A stretch of 64,000 nt of DNA from Escherichia phage vB_Eco_OMNI12. Where the stretch lies: the sequence record OL362041.1, one strand, 5' to 3'. Below the pieces are notes generated by a model. That model worked only from the letters and a program-made list of their open reading frames with translations. It was not told where the DNA came from and ran no database searches. Below are positions 22,110-42,804 of the stretch, one piece after another. Within the stretch, counting starts at the first letter, position 1. Each line of letters opens with the position of its first letter. The translations under genes and the position numbers were made by a program.

Positions 22110-22144
22110 AGGGTAATAGTATCACACTACTACCCTTCTGTAAA
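22110..22144 (-). promoter_or_regulatory. T4-type early promoter with embedded palindrome
   Basis: -35 TTTACA (22139-22144), 17-nt spacer, -10 TACTAT (22116-22121); palindrome agggta...taccct. Confidence 0.6.
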
Positions 22145-32401: not shown

Positions 32402-32546
32402 TTTGTTCTCTCTAGGTTTGGGCCATTCCATGGCGCATGAATTGTCCATTTCTGTATTTACCCATTACCGCACTTGGGCTCGACCTTATTACAGGTTGGC
32501 GGGAATCCCTCACAGAATCATGAGGTCCAGGTTATTCCCATGTTAT

Positions 32547-32963
32547 TTAAATGTAAATATTTTTGCCGTAATACTTATACCAGTGTGGCTTCATTAAAAT
32601 TTTTTCATCGAGTCGTTGTTGACTCAACTTAATAGCTGATTTGCATGGATTATAATCATTTTTTCATTCTACTGGAATATCGCTGATGTCAGGAACTTCA
32701 GTATCTTTTATACTGAACCCGCGTTTTAAGCATTCCGTTATAATGTCCGATTGACGCTTTCGCAAAAATTCTAACTTATCGTAAAAGAAAGTAACATGAC
32801 CAGAACCTAAAATAAATTTAGAAGATATTTTAAAATCTTTAACGCGCTTACCGTTTGCCACATGCTTACGAACTATACCAAAAACACGCGGCAATTCACG
32901 GTATTCTGCGATTAAATGTTGATCAGCAAGTTCAGATACTAAAGTCAAATTAATACGAGTCAT
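32547..32963 (-). pseudogene. denV: denV (pyrimidine-dimer glycosylase, endonuclease V) interrupted by in-frame TGA
   Basis: 99-codon ORF ends at TGA (32666-32664); same frame continues 38 codons ending WYKYYGKNIYI, collinear with remembered T4 endo V (138 aa). Confidence 0.7.
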
Positions 32964-32982
32964 TTTATCCCTCCAAGTAACT

Positions 32983-33017
32983 GTGAATATACTATCACAA
33001 TTCTAGGAGAAAGTAAA
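32983..33017 (-). promoter_or_regulatory. T4-type early promoter upstream of denV
   Basis: -35 TTTACT (33012-33017), 17-nt spacer, -10 TAGTAT (32989-32994). Confidence 0.5.
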
Positions 33018-33022
33018 CAACT

Positions 33023-37023: not shown

Positions 37024-37587
37024 TTATTTACCTAGTTTACTTATTATAGCTTCTGCAGCAGCTTTTAGCTTAGATGCAGTGTTAATACGATTTTTAATTT
37101 CAGTATACGCATCGCCAAGAACATCAAGGCTATCAGAATAAACACTTACACTATTGCGTTCGCTATTTGAAATAGAACCTTTAGTTTTGCGGTCAAAATC
37201 GGTGTACACGTCTTGAAGATCGCGGGCTGCCTTCTTTGCATCATCCAATGCATCAAGAGCTTTATTCAAAGCATTAACGTATTTTTTAGTGTCGAACATA
37301 TTCTTAGAAATTTTAACAGGTGCGCGTTCAGGAGTAGCTAACACAGATTTAGGAACCTGAGCGCCAGATGCCAATTTCTTAGAAATTTTGAAAAATGCTT
37401 TATTGAATTTATTTTCTTGACTCATTGTAAAAGAACTATTATCGATGTTGTACATTTCAATAGCTTTAGCTTTCCACTTAAGAAAATCGCCGCGGTCTTT
37501 TGGGTCCAATTGGAAGAATACTTTAGTAAGATCTGCTTCAGATGGTAATTTTGCTGCTTCGGTTAAAAATTCGGCATAGGTTTTCAT
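37024..37587 (-). CDS. internal-protein-like head protein (capsid-targeting N-terminus)
   Basis: 187 aa; N-terminus MKTYAEFLTE-A matches T4 internal-protein targeting/cleavage motif; Lys/Ala-rich. Confidence 0.55.
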   Translation of the reverse strand: MKTYAEFLTEAAKLPSEADLTKVFFQLDPKDRGDFLKWKAKAIEMYNIDNSSFTMSQENKFNKAFFKISKKLASGAQVPKSVLATPERAPVKISKNMFDTKKYVNALNKALDALDDAKKAARDLQDVYTDFDRKTKGSISNSERNSVSVYSDSLDVLGDAYTEIKNRINTASKLKAAAEAIISKLGK

Positions 37588-37712: not shown

Positions 37713-38186
37713 TCATTTGATTTGTTTAGCAGACCAAATGCGGTCTTTAATAATTTTTTGGATGTCTTCAACATACTCAAGAGAGTGAACATGTGGATTA
37801 TCTTTGAAACTATAAGCACGGGCTAACTTTTGGCCTTCGGTTTTGATTACTAAAAGCTCTTTAAGGATAGCTTCATATTTAGCGATAATTCCTTTAACGA
37901 TATTTTTTTCTTGTGCCGCTTTAGGATCTGCTTTAGGAGCAGGTTTACCCGAAGCCTTTGCAAAAGCAGCGCCAGTAGCAACTAAACTTTTCCAGGCCAT
38001 ACTAACTGCATTTCCCGTAAATCCTTCCGCTTTCATGTCGCGTGCAAACTGGAATCGCGATTCATCAGAAGCATCTTTATAGGAATATTTACCCGCGGCA
38101 ATGGCAGCTTTTGCAACAGCTTGAATTTCGGTGCTAGATGCTTCATTTAACACCGCTTCATTTAAAAATTGAGTATATGATTTCAT
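37713..38186 (-). CDS. internal-protein-like protein (capsid-targeting N-terminus)
   Basis: ORF-track start lies in RNA/terminator region; start moved to ATG 38186-38184 (AGGAA upstream); 157 aa; N-terminus MKSYTQFLNE-A. Confidence 0.5.
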   Translation of the reverse strand: MKSYTQFLNEAVLNEASSTEIQAVAKAAIAAGKYSYKDASDESRFQFARDMKAEGFTGNAVSMAWKSLVATGAAFAKASGKPAPKADPKAAQEKNIVKGIIAKYEAILKELLVIKTEGQKLARAYSFKDNPHVHSLEYVEDIQKIIKDRIWSAKQIK

Positions 38187-38224: not shown

Positions 38225-38232
38225 TATTTATA
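38225..38232 (-). promoter_or_regulatory. late promoter (TATAAATA)
   Basis: Minus-strand TATAAATA 39 nt upstream of ATG 38186. Confidence 0.5.
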
Positions 38233-38269: not shown

Positions 38270-38580
38270 GCGGCAACCTTGTCGGGGTTCCACCTGCTAA
38301 GACAAGTGTTTGTACGAAACGCCGGGATTCGAACCCGGTTATTAAGTAGTTGACGCTACTCAATATTTTTAAAAGGCCATATCTCGACCATATCCGAACG
38401 TTCCGTCAAAAACGCTACTCGGCTTACGGCAAAGATATTTCCTCGAATCGATAATTCGGTGCGCCGTTTCTGCTGTGGTGTAAGAGGGCATCAACAAATC
38501 ATAAAGATTTATTAACGCAATTCCTTACCCAGGGAACATCAGTCCGACGACTTACCGGTAGCGACCCGGTTTCTTGTCTG
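38270..38580 (-). ncRNA. tRNA-like small stable RNAs (T4 species 1/2, rnaC/rnaD-like); boundaries approximate
   Basis: No ORF; T-arm-like CCGGGUUCGAAUCCCGG element; lies between tRNA-Arg and terminator as in T4. Confidence 0.5.
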
Positions 38581-38581
38581 G

Positions 38582-38655
<74 letters not shown>

Positions 38656-38658
38656 TAA

Positions 38659-39324
38659 TTAAAATTTCATTTTTCGACCTTTAAACCATCCTTCTGGAAT
38701 TGGGTCAGTTTTCTTAATACGTTTAGAAACTTTTTCATCTAATGAATGAATCCACATCATACCAAATTGGGAATTCTTTTCACCTTGTTGGTGTTTATTT
38801 TTGGCGTGAGATTCTTTCATTTTATTAATAGTTTCAAGAGTATGGGTCTTACCCAAGAAAGATTTAATATTTAAAAATTTCTCTCTATACTTAGGATTAT
38901 CCCAAAGCTGTTTAAACCTTTCTGAACCCATTTTACGATATTTTTCTTTAAGGTCTGGGTCGTTCTCAAATCTGGTTTTAAAAGCAGCAGCCCCTTTTAA
39001 GGAAGCTTCTTTCTTTTTATCCAAATATTCTTTAGTGTTTAAATGGTCCCAACCACCTTCACCACCTAATTTCAAATTATAAACATCAGGGCGCTTTAAA
39101 AACTCTTCAGTCACAATATTCTTTTCTGACTCAAACATAGAGGTTTTATCGTCAAAGAACTCTAATATTTCTTTAGAGAAATTTTCTATACCATACTTGT
39201 CTTGGGCTCTTTTTAATAATTTACCAGAACCCATATATCCATCATCTAAATTTTCGGTAGAATGAGCGCCTATATAGATTTTATTATTAATTTTATTTGT
39301 TATTTTATAAGTGTAATGGAACAT
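38659..39324 (-). CDS. segB: GIY-YIG homing endonuclease SegB
   Basis: 221 aa; GIY-YIG motif YKITNKINNKIYIGAHS; sits inside tRNA cluster as in T4. Confidence 0.8.
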   Translation of the reverse strand: MFHYTYKITNKINNKIYIGAHSTENLDDGYMGSGKLLKRAQDKYGIENFSKEILEFFDDKTSMFESEKNIVTEEFLKRPDVYNLKLGGEGGWDHLNTKEYLDKKKEASLKGAAAFKTRFENDPDLKEKYRKMGSERFKQLWDNPKYREKFLNIKSFLGKTHTLETINKMKESHAKNKHQQGEKNSQFGMMWIHSLDEKVSKRIKKTDPIPEGWFKGRKMKF

Positions 39325-39365
39325 AAATATCTCCTATTTCTAAGAGTATTTATGTTCCCAAAATA

Positions 39366-39437
39366 TGGCCCTGGGTGGAATTGAACCACCATCTGGCGAT
39401 TATGAGTCGCTTGCTTGAACCTTCCAGCTACAGGGCC
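39366..39437 (-). tRNA. tRNA-Ile (anticodon CAU, lysidine-type)
   Basis: 72 nt; anticodon loop CU-CAU-AA; T-arm GGUGGUUCAAUUCCACC. Confidence 0.8.
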
Positions 39438-39443
39438 TTGATA

Positions 39444-39516
39444 TGCTGATTGACGGAATCGAACCGCCGACATCCTCATTACAAGTGAGGTGCTCTACCT
39501 ACTGAGCTAAATCAGC
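39444..39516 (-). tRNA. tRNA-Thr (anticodon UGU)
   Basis: 73 nt; D-arm GCUCAGUAGGUAGAGC; anticodon loop CU-UGU-AA. Confidence 0.85.
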
Positions 39517-39523
39517 GAAATTA

Positions 39524-39610
39524 CGGAGGCGATAGGATTTGAACCTATGAGTCACCGGAGCGACTGCCGGTTTTCAAGACCGGTGCATTAAACCACTCTG
39601 CCACGCCTCC
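39524..39610 (-). tRNA. tRNA-Ser (anticodon UGA)
   Basis: 87 nt with long variable arm; anticodon loop CU-UGA-AA. Confidence 0.85.
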
Positions 39611-39612
39611 AG

Positions 39613-39686
39613 TCTCCGCGGCAGGATTTGAACCTGCGACATTCTGCTCCCAAAGCAGACGCTCTACCAAACTGAGCTACACGGAG
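39613..39686 (-). tRNA. tRNA-Pro (anticodon UGG)
   Basis: 74 nt; anticodon stem UCUGC/GCAGA, loop UU-UGG-GA. Confidence 0.85.
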
Positions 39687-39698
39687 TAAATTAAATTT

Positions 39699-39770
<72 letters not shown>

Positions 39771-39776
39771 AAACTT

Positions 39777-39863
39777 TGGTACGAGAAGTGGGACTCGAAC
39801 CCACAAGGAAATCATTCCGCAGCATTTTAAGTGCTGTGCCTTTACCAATTTGACCATTCTCGC
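39777..39863 (-). tRNA. tRNA-Leu (anticodon UAA)
   Basis: 87 nt with long variable arm; anticodon loop CU-UAA-AA; CCA encoded. Confidence 0.85.
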
Positions 39864-39864
39864 G

Positions 39865-39937
39865 CTGGGAATAAAGGACTCGAACCTTTGCATCTAGCAG
39901 TCAAAGTGCTATGCCTTACCAACTTGGCTAATTCCCA
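39865..39937 (-). tRNA. tRNA-Gln (anticodon UUG)
   Basis: 73 nt; anticodon loop CU-UUG-AC; 1-nt spacer to tRNA-Leu. Confidence 0.85.
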
Positions 39938-40023
39938 ATTATTAACAAAGGCTCTCAGGAAAGAACCCTTGATGATAGAGGGTATTAATCAGTGCGATAT
40001 GAGTTAATAATAACACATAATTC

Positions 40024-40539
40024 TTAAAGCAAATCAATCATTTTAACGGTTGGCAAAACAATTTCTTTTTCAATATAAGCAAATTCGACACGTTCAACTA
40101 CACGCAAGAAATCGTAATCATAGTATTCAGAAGCATAGCCAAGAATATCAATAAGTCCTTGAGATATCTCATCGCCTTTCACAAAGAACAGGTCGAATAC
40201 GCGGGCTTCGTCTTCTTCAGATTTATCACCAAGGTCTACTTCGATACCAAAGACCTTTTTAATAAATTCCGGTTGGAGTTGGTCTGAGAACAGTCCTTCA
40301 ACCAGATATTCGTAGATAATAAGCGAGCAACGACCGAATGGTGTATTACCGCAATAACGTTCGGCTTTGGTGCTAGAATGACGGCTCTTAAATTTCTTCA
40401 AGAGATATTTAAACTGTTGGAGCTCATGCTCTTCCACTTCAAACAATGTTTTGGTTTTATAGTTGTCACCATCACTTTCATAGGTAGTGACATCAATTAC
40501 GTAGCCCTTAGGAATTGTACTGCCTAAACGAATATTCAT
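40024..40539 (-). CDS. hypothetical protein
   Basis: ORF track 171 aa. Confidence 0.5.
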   Translation of the reverse strand: MNIRLGSTIPKGYVIDVTTYESDGDNYKTKTLFEVEEHELQQFKYLLKKFKSRHSSTKAERYCGNTPFGRCSLIIYEYLVEGLFSDQLQPEFIKKVFGIEVDLGDKSEEDEARVFDLFFVKGDEISQGLIDILGYASEYYDYDFLRVVERVEFAYIEKEIVLPTVKMIDLL

Positions 40540-40543
40540 TTAA

Positions 40544-40834
40544 TCACCATACCATATTAATGTAAGTATACTCAATACATTCAAGATTTAAAGGATTCTT
40601 GAAAATATCATATTCAAGAGGGCCTTTTTCTGTTTCAATAAAGAAATCAAAGTTAACTGTGTTAAATTTACGGTCTTCCTTCACTAATTTAACTTGAGAA
40701 GATGAACGGTCAATGTAAACCTTTTCAACTTCAAAACATGTTAAAATGCCATAATCATCAATCAAAGCTTTAGCCGCGTCTTGATCATATTTATATCCAT
40801 TTTCAATGGATGATACTTTCGCATAAAGAATCAT
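40544..40834 (-). CDS. hypothetical protein
   Basis: ORF track 96 aa. Confidence 0.45.
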   Translation of the reverse strand: MILYAKVSSIENGYKYDQDAAKALIDDYGILTCFEVEKVYIDRSSSQVKLVKEDRKFNTVNFDFFIETEKGPLEYDIFKNPLNLECIEYTYINMVW

Positions 40835-40836
40835 TA

Positions 40837-41235
40837 TCAGCCTTCATCAACAATAGTGTGAGTATTAGCATTTACGATTTGCCACCAATCAAAGCGATTA
40901 GAATCCATCGGTTTGTTTTCATTTTCTTTGATAATGTCACGGAGTTCATCTTCAGAGAATGCTTTAGCGATTAAATCGGTATACCCACCACGTGGATAAT
41001 AATTATCACCTGCAAACAAAAGGAAATTTACCTTCCCGGAAGGAACATACGCTTCCTTAGGATACTTGTTTCCTGCGTGGTCAACCACTTCAATATAACG
41101 GTAAGGAATATCGGTTCTTTCAACCCATTGCCATGCCGCCGCAGGGGAATCGAAAGCATCTACACCTAAACGATTATCTTCATCTTTAGACGGATTATTT
41201 TCGTAATCCGCATATACATAATATTCAACGTTCAT
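40837..41235 (-). CDS. hypothetical protein
   Basis: ORF track 132 aa. Confidence 0.5.
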   Translation of the reverse strand: MNVEYYVYADYENNPSKDEDNRLGVDAFDSPAAAWQWVERTDIPYRYIEVVDHAGNKYPKEAYVPSGKVNFLLFAGDNYYPRGGYTDLIAKAFSEDELRDIIKENENKPMDSNRFDWWQIVNANTHTIVDEG

Positions 41236-41420
41236 TATTCACCTTTAGAAATTTTATCCATAACAATAGCAATTAAACCAATTAAAAATGCTACTACAAG
41301 TGAAAAAACATTTTCTGCCGTAGTCAATAATCCGCATATAAATCCAACAAACATTGAAAAACTGAAAGCGGAAGCAGAAATTGCAATAGCAACATTTCGA
41401 ATTAATTCACAACGTTTCAT
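41235..41420 (-). CDS. small membrane protein
   Basis: 61 aa; two hydrophobic helices; own early promoter. Confidence 0.5.
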   Translation of the reverse strand: MKRCELIRNVAIAISASAFSFSMFVGFICGLLTTAENVFSLVVAFLIGLIAIVMDKISKGE

Positions 41421-41442
41421 TTTATTCTCCTCAGTAGTAGAT

Positions 41443-41477
41443 AGGGTAATAGTATCACTACCCTATCTAAAAGTAAA
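41443..41477 (-). promoter_or_regulatory. T4-type early promoter with 11-bp-arm palindrome
   Basis: -35 TTTACT (41472-41477), 17-nt spacer, -10 TACTAT (41449-41454); palindrome tagatagggta/taccctatcta around -10. Confidence 0.6.
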
Positions 41478-41478
41478 C

Positions 41479-41712
41479 TTATTTTTTACGAAAAATTGAT
41501 TTATTTTCTGCTGCCCATTTTTCAATAACTGCAGCAGGACCAGTAACAACAATTTTATCACCGTAATCTTCTGCGGCGAGTTGACCGAAATTATCTAATG
41601 CATCACGAAGAACTCCATGAGGCATTTCACCCATTTTATCTTTCTTGCCAGTGTAAATAAACTCAACTTTTACATCAGCAGTTTCAGCAATAAATTCTTG
41701 GTAAGTTTTCAT
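41479..41712 (-). CDS. ipI: internal protein I-like (capsid-targeted, putative anti-restriction)
   Basis: Start at Met 5 of ORF track; N-terminus MKTYQEFIAE is the T4 internal-protein capsid-targeting sequence; adjacent to 57B as ipI in T4. Confidence 0.6.
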   Translation of the reverse strand: MKTYQEFIAETADVKVEFIYTGKKDKMGEMPHGVLRDALDNFGQLAAEDYGDKIVVTGPAAVIEKWAAENKSIFRKK

Positions 41713-41740
41713 TTTGATTTCCATTTGGTTTTGTTTTGAT

Positions 41741-41775
41741 AGGGTAATAGTATCACAACTAAAACCCTATGTAAA
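41741..41775 (-). promoter_or_regulatory. T4-type early promoter with palindrome
   Basis: -35 TTTACA (41770-41775), 17-nt spacer, -10 TACTAT (41747-41752). Confidence 0.6.
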
Positions 41776-41788
41776 CAACTTTGTGAAA

Positions 41789-42046
41789 TTATTTTAAATC
41801 TTCTAATCGTTTCTTCATCTTAGAACCATTTTTAGCAATTTCTCCTGCATCGGAGCATAATGCTAAAAGTGCTTTAACTTTAGTTTGGTCTCCTTTAAAA
41901 GATGAAGGATCGACCGCAGCAGCAAGTTCTTTAATACGAGAGAAAAGACGCTCAGCTTCAGCTAAAGCCATTCCAAGCTTTACTTCCATACCGTGGGAAG
42001 ATTCAGTGATAGTAGTTTTTGTAGCAAACTCTTTGAAAGTTTTCAT
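41789..42046 (-). CDS. internal-protein-like small protein
   Basis: 85 aa; N-terminus MKTFKEFATK resembles capsid-targeting sequence; AGGAAAA SD. Confidence 0.5.
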   Translation of the reverse strand: MKTFKEFATKTTITESSHGMEVKLGMALAEAERLFSRIKELAAAVDPSSFKGDQTKVKALLALCSDAGEIAKNGSKMKKRLEDLK

Positions 42047-42071
42047 TTTTATTTTCCTAATTAATTTTGAT

Positions 42072-42106
42072 GAGGTAATAGTATCACTACCTCATCAGTA
42101 TGTAAA
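42072..42106 (-). promoter_or_regulatory. T4-type early promoter with 9-bp-arm palindrome
   Basis: -35 TTTACA (42101-42106), 17-nt spacer, -10 TACTAT (42078-42083); palindrome gatgaggta/tacctcatc. Confidence 0.6.
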
Positions 42107-42119
42107 CAACTTTGTGAAA

Positions 42120-42804
<685 letters not shown>

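Follow-up and report, generated by a model that had tools for sequence, protein, structure and literature searches.

The window analysed here is a stretch of 64,000 nucleotides (nt) of Escherichia phage vB_Eco_OMNI12 (OL362041.1), and the element in question is a group of six open reading frames (ORFs) lying between gene 57B and tRNA-Gln, together with the repeated promoter/stem-loop cassettes among them (Table 1). The segment comes from a T4-like phage of the genus Tequatrovirus. Over 22 kb around the locus, identity to hundreds of T-even genomes was 95-99%, and the minus-strand order runs gp2, gp3, gp1, 57A, 57B, the six ORFs and then eight tRNA genes, with segB among them. An earlier note on this DNA had placed six genes here, and all six were found at their positions, on the minus strand, between 57B and tRNA-Gln. 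The homology search of the six products confirmed internal proteins (IPs) in two cases, Ip5 and Ip6; the others were Trna.4, Trna.3, Trna.2 and a 171-amino-acid (aa) member of the RB32ORF135c family. The assignment of the stretch to the T-even ip1 hypervariable locus was borne out by its position from 57B to trna.4, by the named ip genes and by the variation among relatives. We therefore regard it as highly probable that the stretch represents the T4-like ip1 hypervariable locus in an Ip5 plus Ip6 configuration, as also present in phage Bas37. Positions 40578-42626 were 99.0% identical at the DNA level to Bas37 (KarlGJung, MZ501089), Ip5, Trna.4, 57B and Ip6 were each identical between the two phages, and copies of every gene of the locus, identical or nearly so, exist in public phage genomes.

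Two of the six products carry N-termini of the internal-protein type, as the earlier note had proposed: MKTFKEF in Ip5 and MKTYQEFIAE in Ip6 match the T4 capsid-targeting leader. The motif MK[ST][FY]x[EQ]F occurred four times in a six-frame translation of the window, every time at the start of a minus-strand ORF, against a chance expectation roughly estimated at about 0.01. The first ten residues of Ip6 are those of T4 IPII and IPIII, and the Ip5 leader, MKTFKEFATKTTITE, parallels the T4 IPI leader, MKTFKEFTSTTTPVSTITE. Each leader ends in [LIV]-x-E, with ITE at residue 15 in Ip5 and IAE at residue 10 in Ip6; the T4 counterparts are ITE at residue 19 in IPI and IAE at residue 10 in IPII and IPIII. 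In T4, the gp21 prohead protease cuts after such motifs. The leader-end sites of Ip5 and Ip6 match this cleavage motif, and the predicted mature forms are 70 aa with an isoelectric point (pI) of 9.2 for Ip5 and 67 aa with a pI of 6.5 for Ip6. The leader, the cleavage motif and the location at an IP locus behind a promoter/stem-loop, which characterize the Ip family, were all found for Ip5 and Ip6, and their similarity to T4 IPI* was restricted to the leader, with no homology between the mature domains. A sequence search of the PDB with Ip5 and Ip6 returned no credible match. A leader of this type directs proteins into the capsid, as stated generally by Silas 2025 (PMC12373910) and in a preprint (10.1101/2025.11.20.689424). 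It is absent from Trna.4, Trna.3, Trna.2 and the 171-aa ORF, the N-termini of which read MKRCELI, MNVEYYV, MILYAKV and MNIRLGS, respectively.

Table 1. Coordinates of the features of the ip1 locus and of the related elements in the window
Feature	Position	Strand	Description	Basis
Ip5	41789-42046	-	internal protein, 85 aa, leader MKTFKEFATKTTITE	100% identical to RB15/RB32 Ip5
Ip6	41479-41712	-	internal protein, 77 aa from the MKTYQEF start (longest ATG 81 aa)	annotated ip6/ipVI in fFiEco06, PST, GiZh and VR7; PHROG 8111
Trna.4	41235-41420	-	61 aa, two hydrophobic segments	100% identical to T4 Trna.4
Trna.3 homologue	40837-41235	-	132 aa, acidic	64% identical to T4 Trna.3
Trna.2 homologue	40544-40834	-	96 aa, acidic	94.5% identical to T4 Trna.2; PHROG 2023
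171-aa ORF	40024-40539	-	RB32ORF135c family	81% identical to RB32ORF135c
Cassette 1	42068-42106	-	early-type promoter, -35 TTTACA at 42106, -10 TACTAT ending 42078; overlaps 13-bp hairpin 42068-42097	hairpin z=-4.2
Cassette 2	41739-41775	-	promoter 41775 to 41747, overlapping imperfect hairpin	hairpin z=-3.7
Cassette 3	41438-41477	-	promoter-like TTTACT, 17 nt, TACTAT (41477 to 41449), overlapping 14-bp hairpin 41438-41469	hairpin z=-3.4
57B / Acb1	42120-42578	-	anti-CBASS phosphodiesterase, upstream boundary of the locus	Pfam Acb1 E=2.7e-60; 100% identical to T4 57B
Hairpin	39946-39971	-	between 171-aa ORF and tRNA-Gln	folding scan
tRNA-Gln	39864-39937		other flank of the six ORFs	
157-aa ORF	37713-38186	-	leader-like MKSYTQFLNE	100% identical to bas37_0244; PHROG 2280
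187-aa ORF	37024-37587	-	leader-like MKTYAEFLTE	100% identical to bas37_0243; PHROG 2280

Ip6 was present in 245 phage records and was identical to bas37_0260 of phage Bas37 in 234 of 234 nt and 77 of 77 residues; the annotation table of the preprint places that gene at 145553-145786 of MZ501089. The two genes also share the same neighbours from trna.2 to 57B, whereas Bas37 differs in lacking the 171-aa ORF and in carrying a homing endonuclease gene in place of tRNA-Gln. According to the preprint (10.1101/2025.11.20.689424; HIDEN-SEQ, November 2025), bas37_0260 sits at the ipI locus of Bas37, its disruption strongly reduced fitness on K-12 BW25113 but had no such effect on a derivative without McrA, McrBC and Mrr, and a clean knockout was specifically McrBC-sensitive. 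In the accompanying tables, insertion counts for this gene were approximately 32-fold lower (log2 5.0) on K-12 BW25113 than on two clinical isolates. The same work reports that the product shares only its N-terminal packaging signal with IPI, IPII and IPIII, and its authors deduced packaging from the leader. The suggestion of the earlier note that this locus encodes injected anti-restriction proteins therefore holds for Ip6, which as Bas37_0260 experimentally counters McrBC, and is favoured for Ip5 by its leader, but the other four products have no leader. McrBC recognises 5-hydroxymethylcytosine (5hmC), and about 25% of this base stays without glucose in T2- and T6-type phages, which is a plausible rationale for carrying an McrBC inhibitor. 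At the level of 50%-identity clusters, an exhaustive search with Ip6 returned four true relatives. A match to a 491-aa protein was rejected as spurious, this being a tandem-repeat protein in which the recurrence of 'DKDKSGELNHPSGV' segments raises the score artificially; a further match, to a 6899-aa protein with 20 matching stretches, was presumed to be an artefact of the same kind.

Ip5 was found in nearly 500 phage records, in about half of them at less than 60% identity. Ip5-like genes (47-54% identity) also lie beside the lysozyme gene e, the second IP locus, in 228 phage records (VR20, AV115, HX01 and others), which argues that ip genes have been exchanged between the two IP loci. Ip5 is probably directed at another defence that targets DNA and is specific to certain strains. 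T4 Ip1, Ip2 and Ip3 each block a different GmrSD-family enzyme, without cross-protection (Silas 2025, PMC12373910). In the HIDEN-SEQ tables (10.1101/2025.11.20.689424), insertions in bas37_0261, which encodes Ip5, were depleted on the uropathogenic strain CFT073 (log2 fold change of -2.09, adjusted p reported as 0), with no depletion on CFE299 (log2 fold change of -0.01). The CFT073 strain has a GmrSD homologue, c5421. We treat this depletion as a lead on the Ip5 target and not as a result.

A repeated intergenic element was found 5' of each of the first three genes (42065-42135, 41734-41804 and 41436-41506). Two copies passed a sigma-70-type scan, with TTTACA, a 17-nt spacer, TACTAT and an upstream TG; cassette 3 scored 8 out of 12, slightly below the threshold. 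The idea that three genes each have an early promoter of their own thus stands as far as the element itself and its first two copies are concerned, but the third copy falls short of the threshold and is likely to serve a run of four genes. The z-scores of the hairpins (Table 1) compare their folding with that of shuffled sequence. Cassette 1 is nearly identical to the T4 57B-ipI intergenic region, and cassette 2 matches the T4 ipI-trna.4 cassette at 96.6% identity over 59 nt. The cassette core, GTGATACTATTAC, occurs in exactly four copies in the 64 kb, three of them at this locus; at up to two mismatches, there were nine matches in the window versus 1.6 expected, a number reached by no shuffle. 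The fourth exact copy lies at 22113-22125 on the minus strand, far from the ip locus. In an alignment of the intergenic regions of the window, T4 and RB32, GTTTAC followed by GTGATACTATTAC inside the hairpin was conserved between every gene pair.

These cassettes resemble the PeSLs of RB49/phi1 (Arbiol 2010, PMC2839356; Comeau 2014, PMC4122927) in being repeats of a promoter and a stem-loop that sit between genes, on either side of accessory ORFs, and at which recombination breakpoints fall. Unlike those, the T-even elements use the T4 early-promoter type and have AT-rich stems without poly-G/poly-C, and the hairpin here overlaps the -10 element and is not followed by a U-run. A PeSL in the strict sense combines a sigma-70 promoter with a G/C-rich terminator stem-loop, and of this combination we found promoter-like hexamers and stable hairpins but AT-rich stems and no terminator-like site, so that the cassettes are not PeSLs in this sense. 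This agrees with the description of the T-even IP-associated elements as analogues, not homologues, of true PeSLs (Arbiol 2010, PMC2839356).

The region varies widely among relatives. A total of 876 phage records matched it, only 50 of them covering at least 80%. Related loci were retrieved with a 57B probe (36 fetched, 34 informative). Among the 34 loci, the number of leader-bearing ORFs 3' of 57B ranged from none detected to about five, and these ORFs belong to many unrelated families. A Trna.4 homologue then follows in 30 loci, homologues of Trna.3 and Trna.2 are present in most, and a relative of the 171-aa ORF is present in about a third. The survey thus confines the variable part to the stretch from 57B to trna.4, the remainder being a semi-conserved backbone. 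Homology to T4 runs from 57B to position 42012, covering cassette 1 and about 11 leader codons, is lost across the bodies of Ip5 and Ip6, and returns at 41458 inside cassette 3. The breaks in homology coincide with the promoter cassettes, in line with Repoila 1994 and Arbiol 2010. The 5' ends of ip5 and ip6 are 77% identical over 44 nt. The locus shares with the known ip1 locus its position between 57B and trna.4 and its small leader-bearing ORFs, each behind a promoter/stem-loop. The difference, which is not an essential one, lies in the ip gene sets, with Ip5 and Ip6 here versus IpI in T4, Ip5-Ip9-Ip7 in RB32 and Ip5-Ip7 in T2. The account of Repoila 1994 that is given in Arbiol 2010 (PMC2839356) places 'PeSL-like' elements at two variable IP loci, and the later authors add that promoter/stem-loop elements may account for IP shuffling and for the plasticity of the IP loci. 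The records deposited with Repoila 1994 already give names to Ip5 and its neighbours, and the name Ip6 appears in later phage records.

The four leaderless genes are tightly packed. The trna.4 stop and the trna.3 start overlap by 1 nt, gaps of 2 and 4 nt follow, and there is no cassette between them, which argues that the third promoter most likely drives all four. By identity (Table 1) and by their conserved T4 gene order, Trna.4, Trna.3 and Trna.2 are orthologues of the T4 proteins. The third cassette gene, counted in the earlier note among the promoter-gene cassettes of a hypervariable internal-protein locus, is not a variable internal protein but a T4-identical, leaderless gene that recurs at most related loci. 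Likewise, two of the three supposedly unknown ORFs proved to be the homologues of T4 trna.3 and trna.2, and the third has family members in many large phages. According to hydropathy, the two hydrophobic segments of Trna.4 are long enough to span a membrane; the three soluble products (Trna.3, Trna.2 and the 171-aa protein) have pI values of 4.4 to 4.7. The Trna.3 model (pLDDT 87) contains two tandem small strand-strand-helix-strand (alpha/beta) domains with the same order of elements. Its N-terminal domain is variable and its C-terminal domain corresponds to Pfam PF26894, an assignment precomputed on Trna.3 relatives; this domain is common as a stand-alone ORF of 60-70 aa with a YYPxGG motif, in hundreds of phage and metagenome sequences. 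A fold search with the Trna.3 model gave no informative match. In a published pulldown with active DRT1, only two phage proteins were enriched, T4 Trna.2 being one of them, and the authors of that work left it there. A weak N-terminal BLAST resemblance between Trna.2 and the 171-aa ORF (E=0.01, in a tiny database) was rejected, as the profile-profile probability was 0.4%. The family profiles of Trna.2, Trna.3 and the 171-aa ORF found no credible match in a sequence search of the PDB.

The 171-aa ORF is absent from T4, Paracelsus and Bas37 and present in T2 and RB32, and its family is widespread in large phages, with invariant E21, D23, D25 and R146. The indel that removes it in T4, Paracelsus and Bas37 begins in the last trna.2 codons, altering the Trna.2 C-terminus, and ends approximately 10 nt before the stop codon of the ORF, so that the final TGCTTTAA is kept in T4. 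In phage ASO78A, a rho-independent terminator is annotated at the position syntenic to the hairpin between this ORF and tRNA-Gln; a local scan found no canonical terminator at 39946-39971. When all six products were compared with Pfam, NCBIfam and PADLOC, there was no match above threshold, and PHROGs returned only the labels 'internal head/virion protein' and 'unknown function'. In the reference library of Bas37, bas37_0257 to bas37_0262 were all scored as non-essential (HIDEN-SEQ tables), and the trna.2-4 homologues of Bas37 showed no host-specific effect in two HIDEN-SEQ comparisons.

T4 IPI* is reportedly an injected inhibitor of a GmrSD-family type IV restriction enzyme (Bair 2007; Rifat 2008). 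Ip5 and Ip6 resemble T4 IPI*, Ip2 and Ip3 in their leader, cleavage motif and similar size and in their presumed delivery route and class of target, a modification-dependent nuclease; they differ in having no similarity past the leader, and Ip6 targets McrBC and not a GmrSD enzyme. We propose that Ip5 and Ip6 would each be transcribed from their own T4-early-type promoter and that the N-terminal leader would direct both of them into the prohead core, where the prohead protease would cut after I-x-E, at E15 in Ip5 and at E10 in Ip6. The mature proteins, of approximately 7.5 kDa each, would then be packaged together with the DNA and enter the host by injection before any gene is expressed, and Ip6 would shield the DNA on entry against McrBC, a type IV restriction enzyme of the host. 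The cassettes, together with the common leader codons, would provide short homologies at which recombination between co-infecting phages may swap, add or delete whole ip genes. The compact early run of trna.4, trna.3, trna.2 and the 171-aa ORF would most likely be driven by the third cassette, and its products, having no leader, would not be injected; an intracellular accessory or counter-defence role for these four genes is only a guess.

Several observations weigh against this proposal or limit its reach. Packaging and injection of Ip5 and Ip6 are inferred from the leader and the cleavage motif, and the link between Ip6 and McrBC was observed in another phage and is reported in a preprint. 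In the work of Silas 2025 (PMC12373910), ip4-10 were among the genes tested on the GmrSD panel and gave no reproducible inhibition, which leaves an anti-GmrSD role of Ip5 without direct support. No U-run follows any cassette hairpin and a terminator scan of the locus found no site. The late-promoter consensus, TATAAATA, was not found upstream of ip5 or ip6, although the proteins are needed during head assembly; this is not contradictory, because T4 ipI shows the same cassette architecture. For the four leaderless products, family, defence/anti-defence and fold searches yielded no function, and confident AlphaFold models of two of them had no informative match.

A broader explanation, that of the earlier note, is that all six products form a set of injected host-defence antagonists. 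The six genes do lie in a variable accessory region, beside the proven anti-defence genes 57B/Acb1 and Ip6, and the 171-aa ORF comes and goes from phage to phage. However, only Ip5 and Ip6 carry the targeting leader, so that for four of the six the proposal fails; Trna.4 is hydrophobic with two potentially membrane-spanning segments, Trna.4, Trna.3 and Trna.2 belong to the recurrent and not to the variable part of the locus, and the trna.2-4 homologues in Bas37 had no host-specific phenotype in either comparison. Taken together, these data make the six-antagonist explanation very improbable. The opposite outcome named by the earlier note, namely that all six are well-characterised T4 genes of unrelated function, does not apply either, because the T4 trna.x genes are themselves uncharacterised. 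A narrower alternative concerns Ip5, which might serve chiefly in the head core, as a structural or DNA-condensing protein, with no specific defence target. The predicted mature protein is basic, the GmrSD panel gave no reproducible inhibition by ip4-10 (Silas 2025, PMC12373910), and Ip5 is non-essential, its insertions being neutral on K-12 relative to CFE299. Nevertheless, T4 IPI* is similarly basic (pI 9.0) and yet a dedicated inhibitor, each of the four internal proteins of known function (Ip1, Ip2, Ip3 and Ip6) inhibits type IV restriction specifically, and the depletion of Ip5 insertions on CFT073 was significant. We consider a purely structural role of Ip5 unlikely.

With regard to the genes from trna.4 to the 171-aa ORF, they may instead encode early, non-injected intracellular proteins that act in counter-defence or host takeover. 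The tight packing behind an early-type promoter, the acidic nature of Trna.3, Trna.2 and the 171-aa product, the enrichment of T4 Trna.2 with active DRT1, the wide distribution and invariant residues of the 171-aa family and the laboratory dispensability of the run are consistent with this possibility. Against it stand the lack of a match to any known anti-defence or defence family and of an informative fold match, the lack of host-dependent effects in both Bas37 data sets and the fact that the DRT1 pulldown was not taken further by its authors; we hold this role to be possible, with the odds clearly against it. A more specific version is a little more doubtful still: the four leaderless genes would form an unrecognised early counter-defence module, in which the 171-aa protein is an enzyme with a fold so far unseen in solved structures (an invariant E-x-D-x-D loop plus an Arg) and Trna.2 is a DRT1 binder, and Ip5 would separately inhibit a CFT073 defence, e.g., c5421. 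The reading we prefer remains that of two leader-bearing proteins, Ip5 and Ip6, which would be injected, followed by a leaderless early run.

Leader-like N-termini were also found beyond the tRNA cluster, in the 187- and 157-aa ORFs, which are flanked by the e.8 homologue and tRNA-Arg; the corresponding T4 position has no ORF. Both ORFs are 'hypothetical' in public records, and their PHROG is of unknown function. They were rejected as relatives of T4 IPII/IPIII, as there was no similarity past the leader. A hairpin and the late-promoter consensus TATAAATA (38225-38232) lie upstream of the 157-aa ORF. In the HIDEN-SEQ tables (10.1101/2025.11.20.689424), bas37_0243, with one of its 48 TA sites hit, was scored as essential, and bas37_0244, with 29 hits for 34 sites, as non-essential; the main text of the preprint is silent on bas37_0243. 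Since Arbiol 2010 (PMC2839356) reported IP genes to be absent outside the two known loci and bas37_0243 was scored as essential, a third site with a possibly indispensable leader-bearing protein may deserve a look.

Some further features of the window lie outside the ip1 locus. The T4 ipII/ipIII site, the denV-e interval, is empty here (32964-33022), with only about 60 bp; reading of this sequence revealed an early-promoter-like element with its -10 region in a short hairpin. The adjacent denV homologue (32546-32963, minus strand) is 86% identical to T4 over 99 residues and has an in-frame stop after codon 99; past this stop, recognisable denV sequence continues in frame to the normal end, which could reflect a pseudogene, a sequencing error or read-through. 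The tRNA cluster (38579-39937) contains segB (38659-39324), as in T4, and eight T4-type tRNAs. In Bas35, Bas36 and Bas37, which are otherwise near-identical, segB is missing at this place and the tRNA set differs, with additional His, Asn and Tyr tRNAs, which argues that the window is mosaic, with some segments T4-like and others Bas37-like.

The locus itself, the part of the cassettes in its variability and the anti-restriction function of its injected proteins have all been published already, and nothing in them is new. The practical value of the analysis lies in three testable leads: the target of Ip5, with the hint from CFT073; the uncharacterised genes from Trna.4 to the 171-aa ORF; and the leader-bearing gene that was scored as essential in Bas37.

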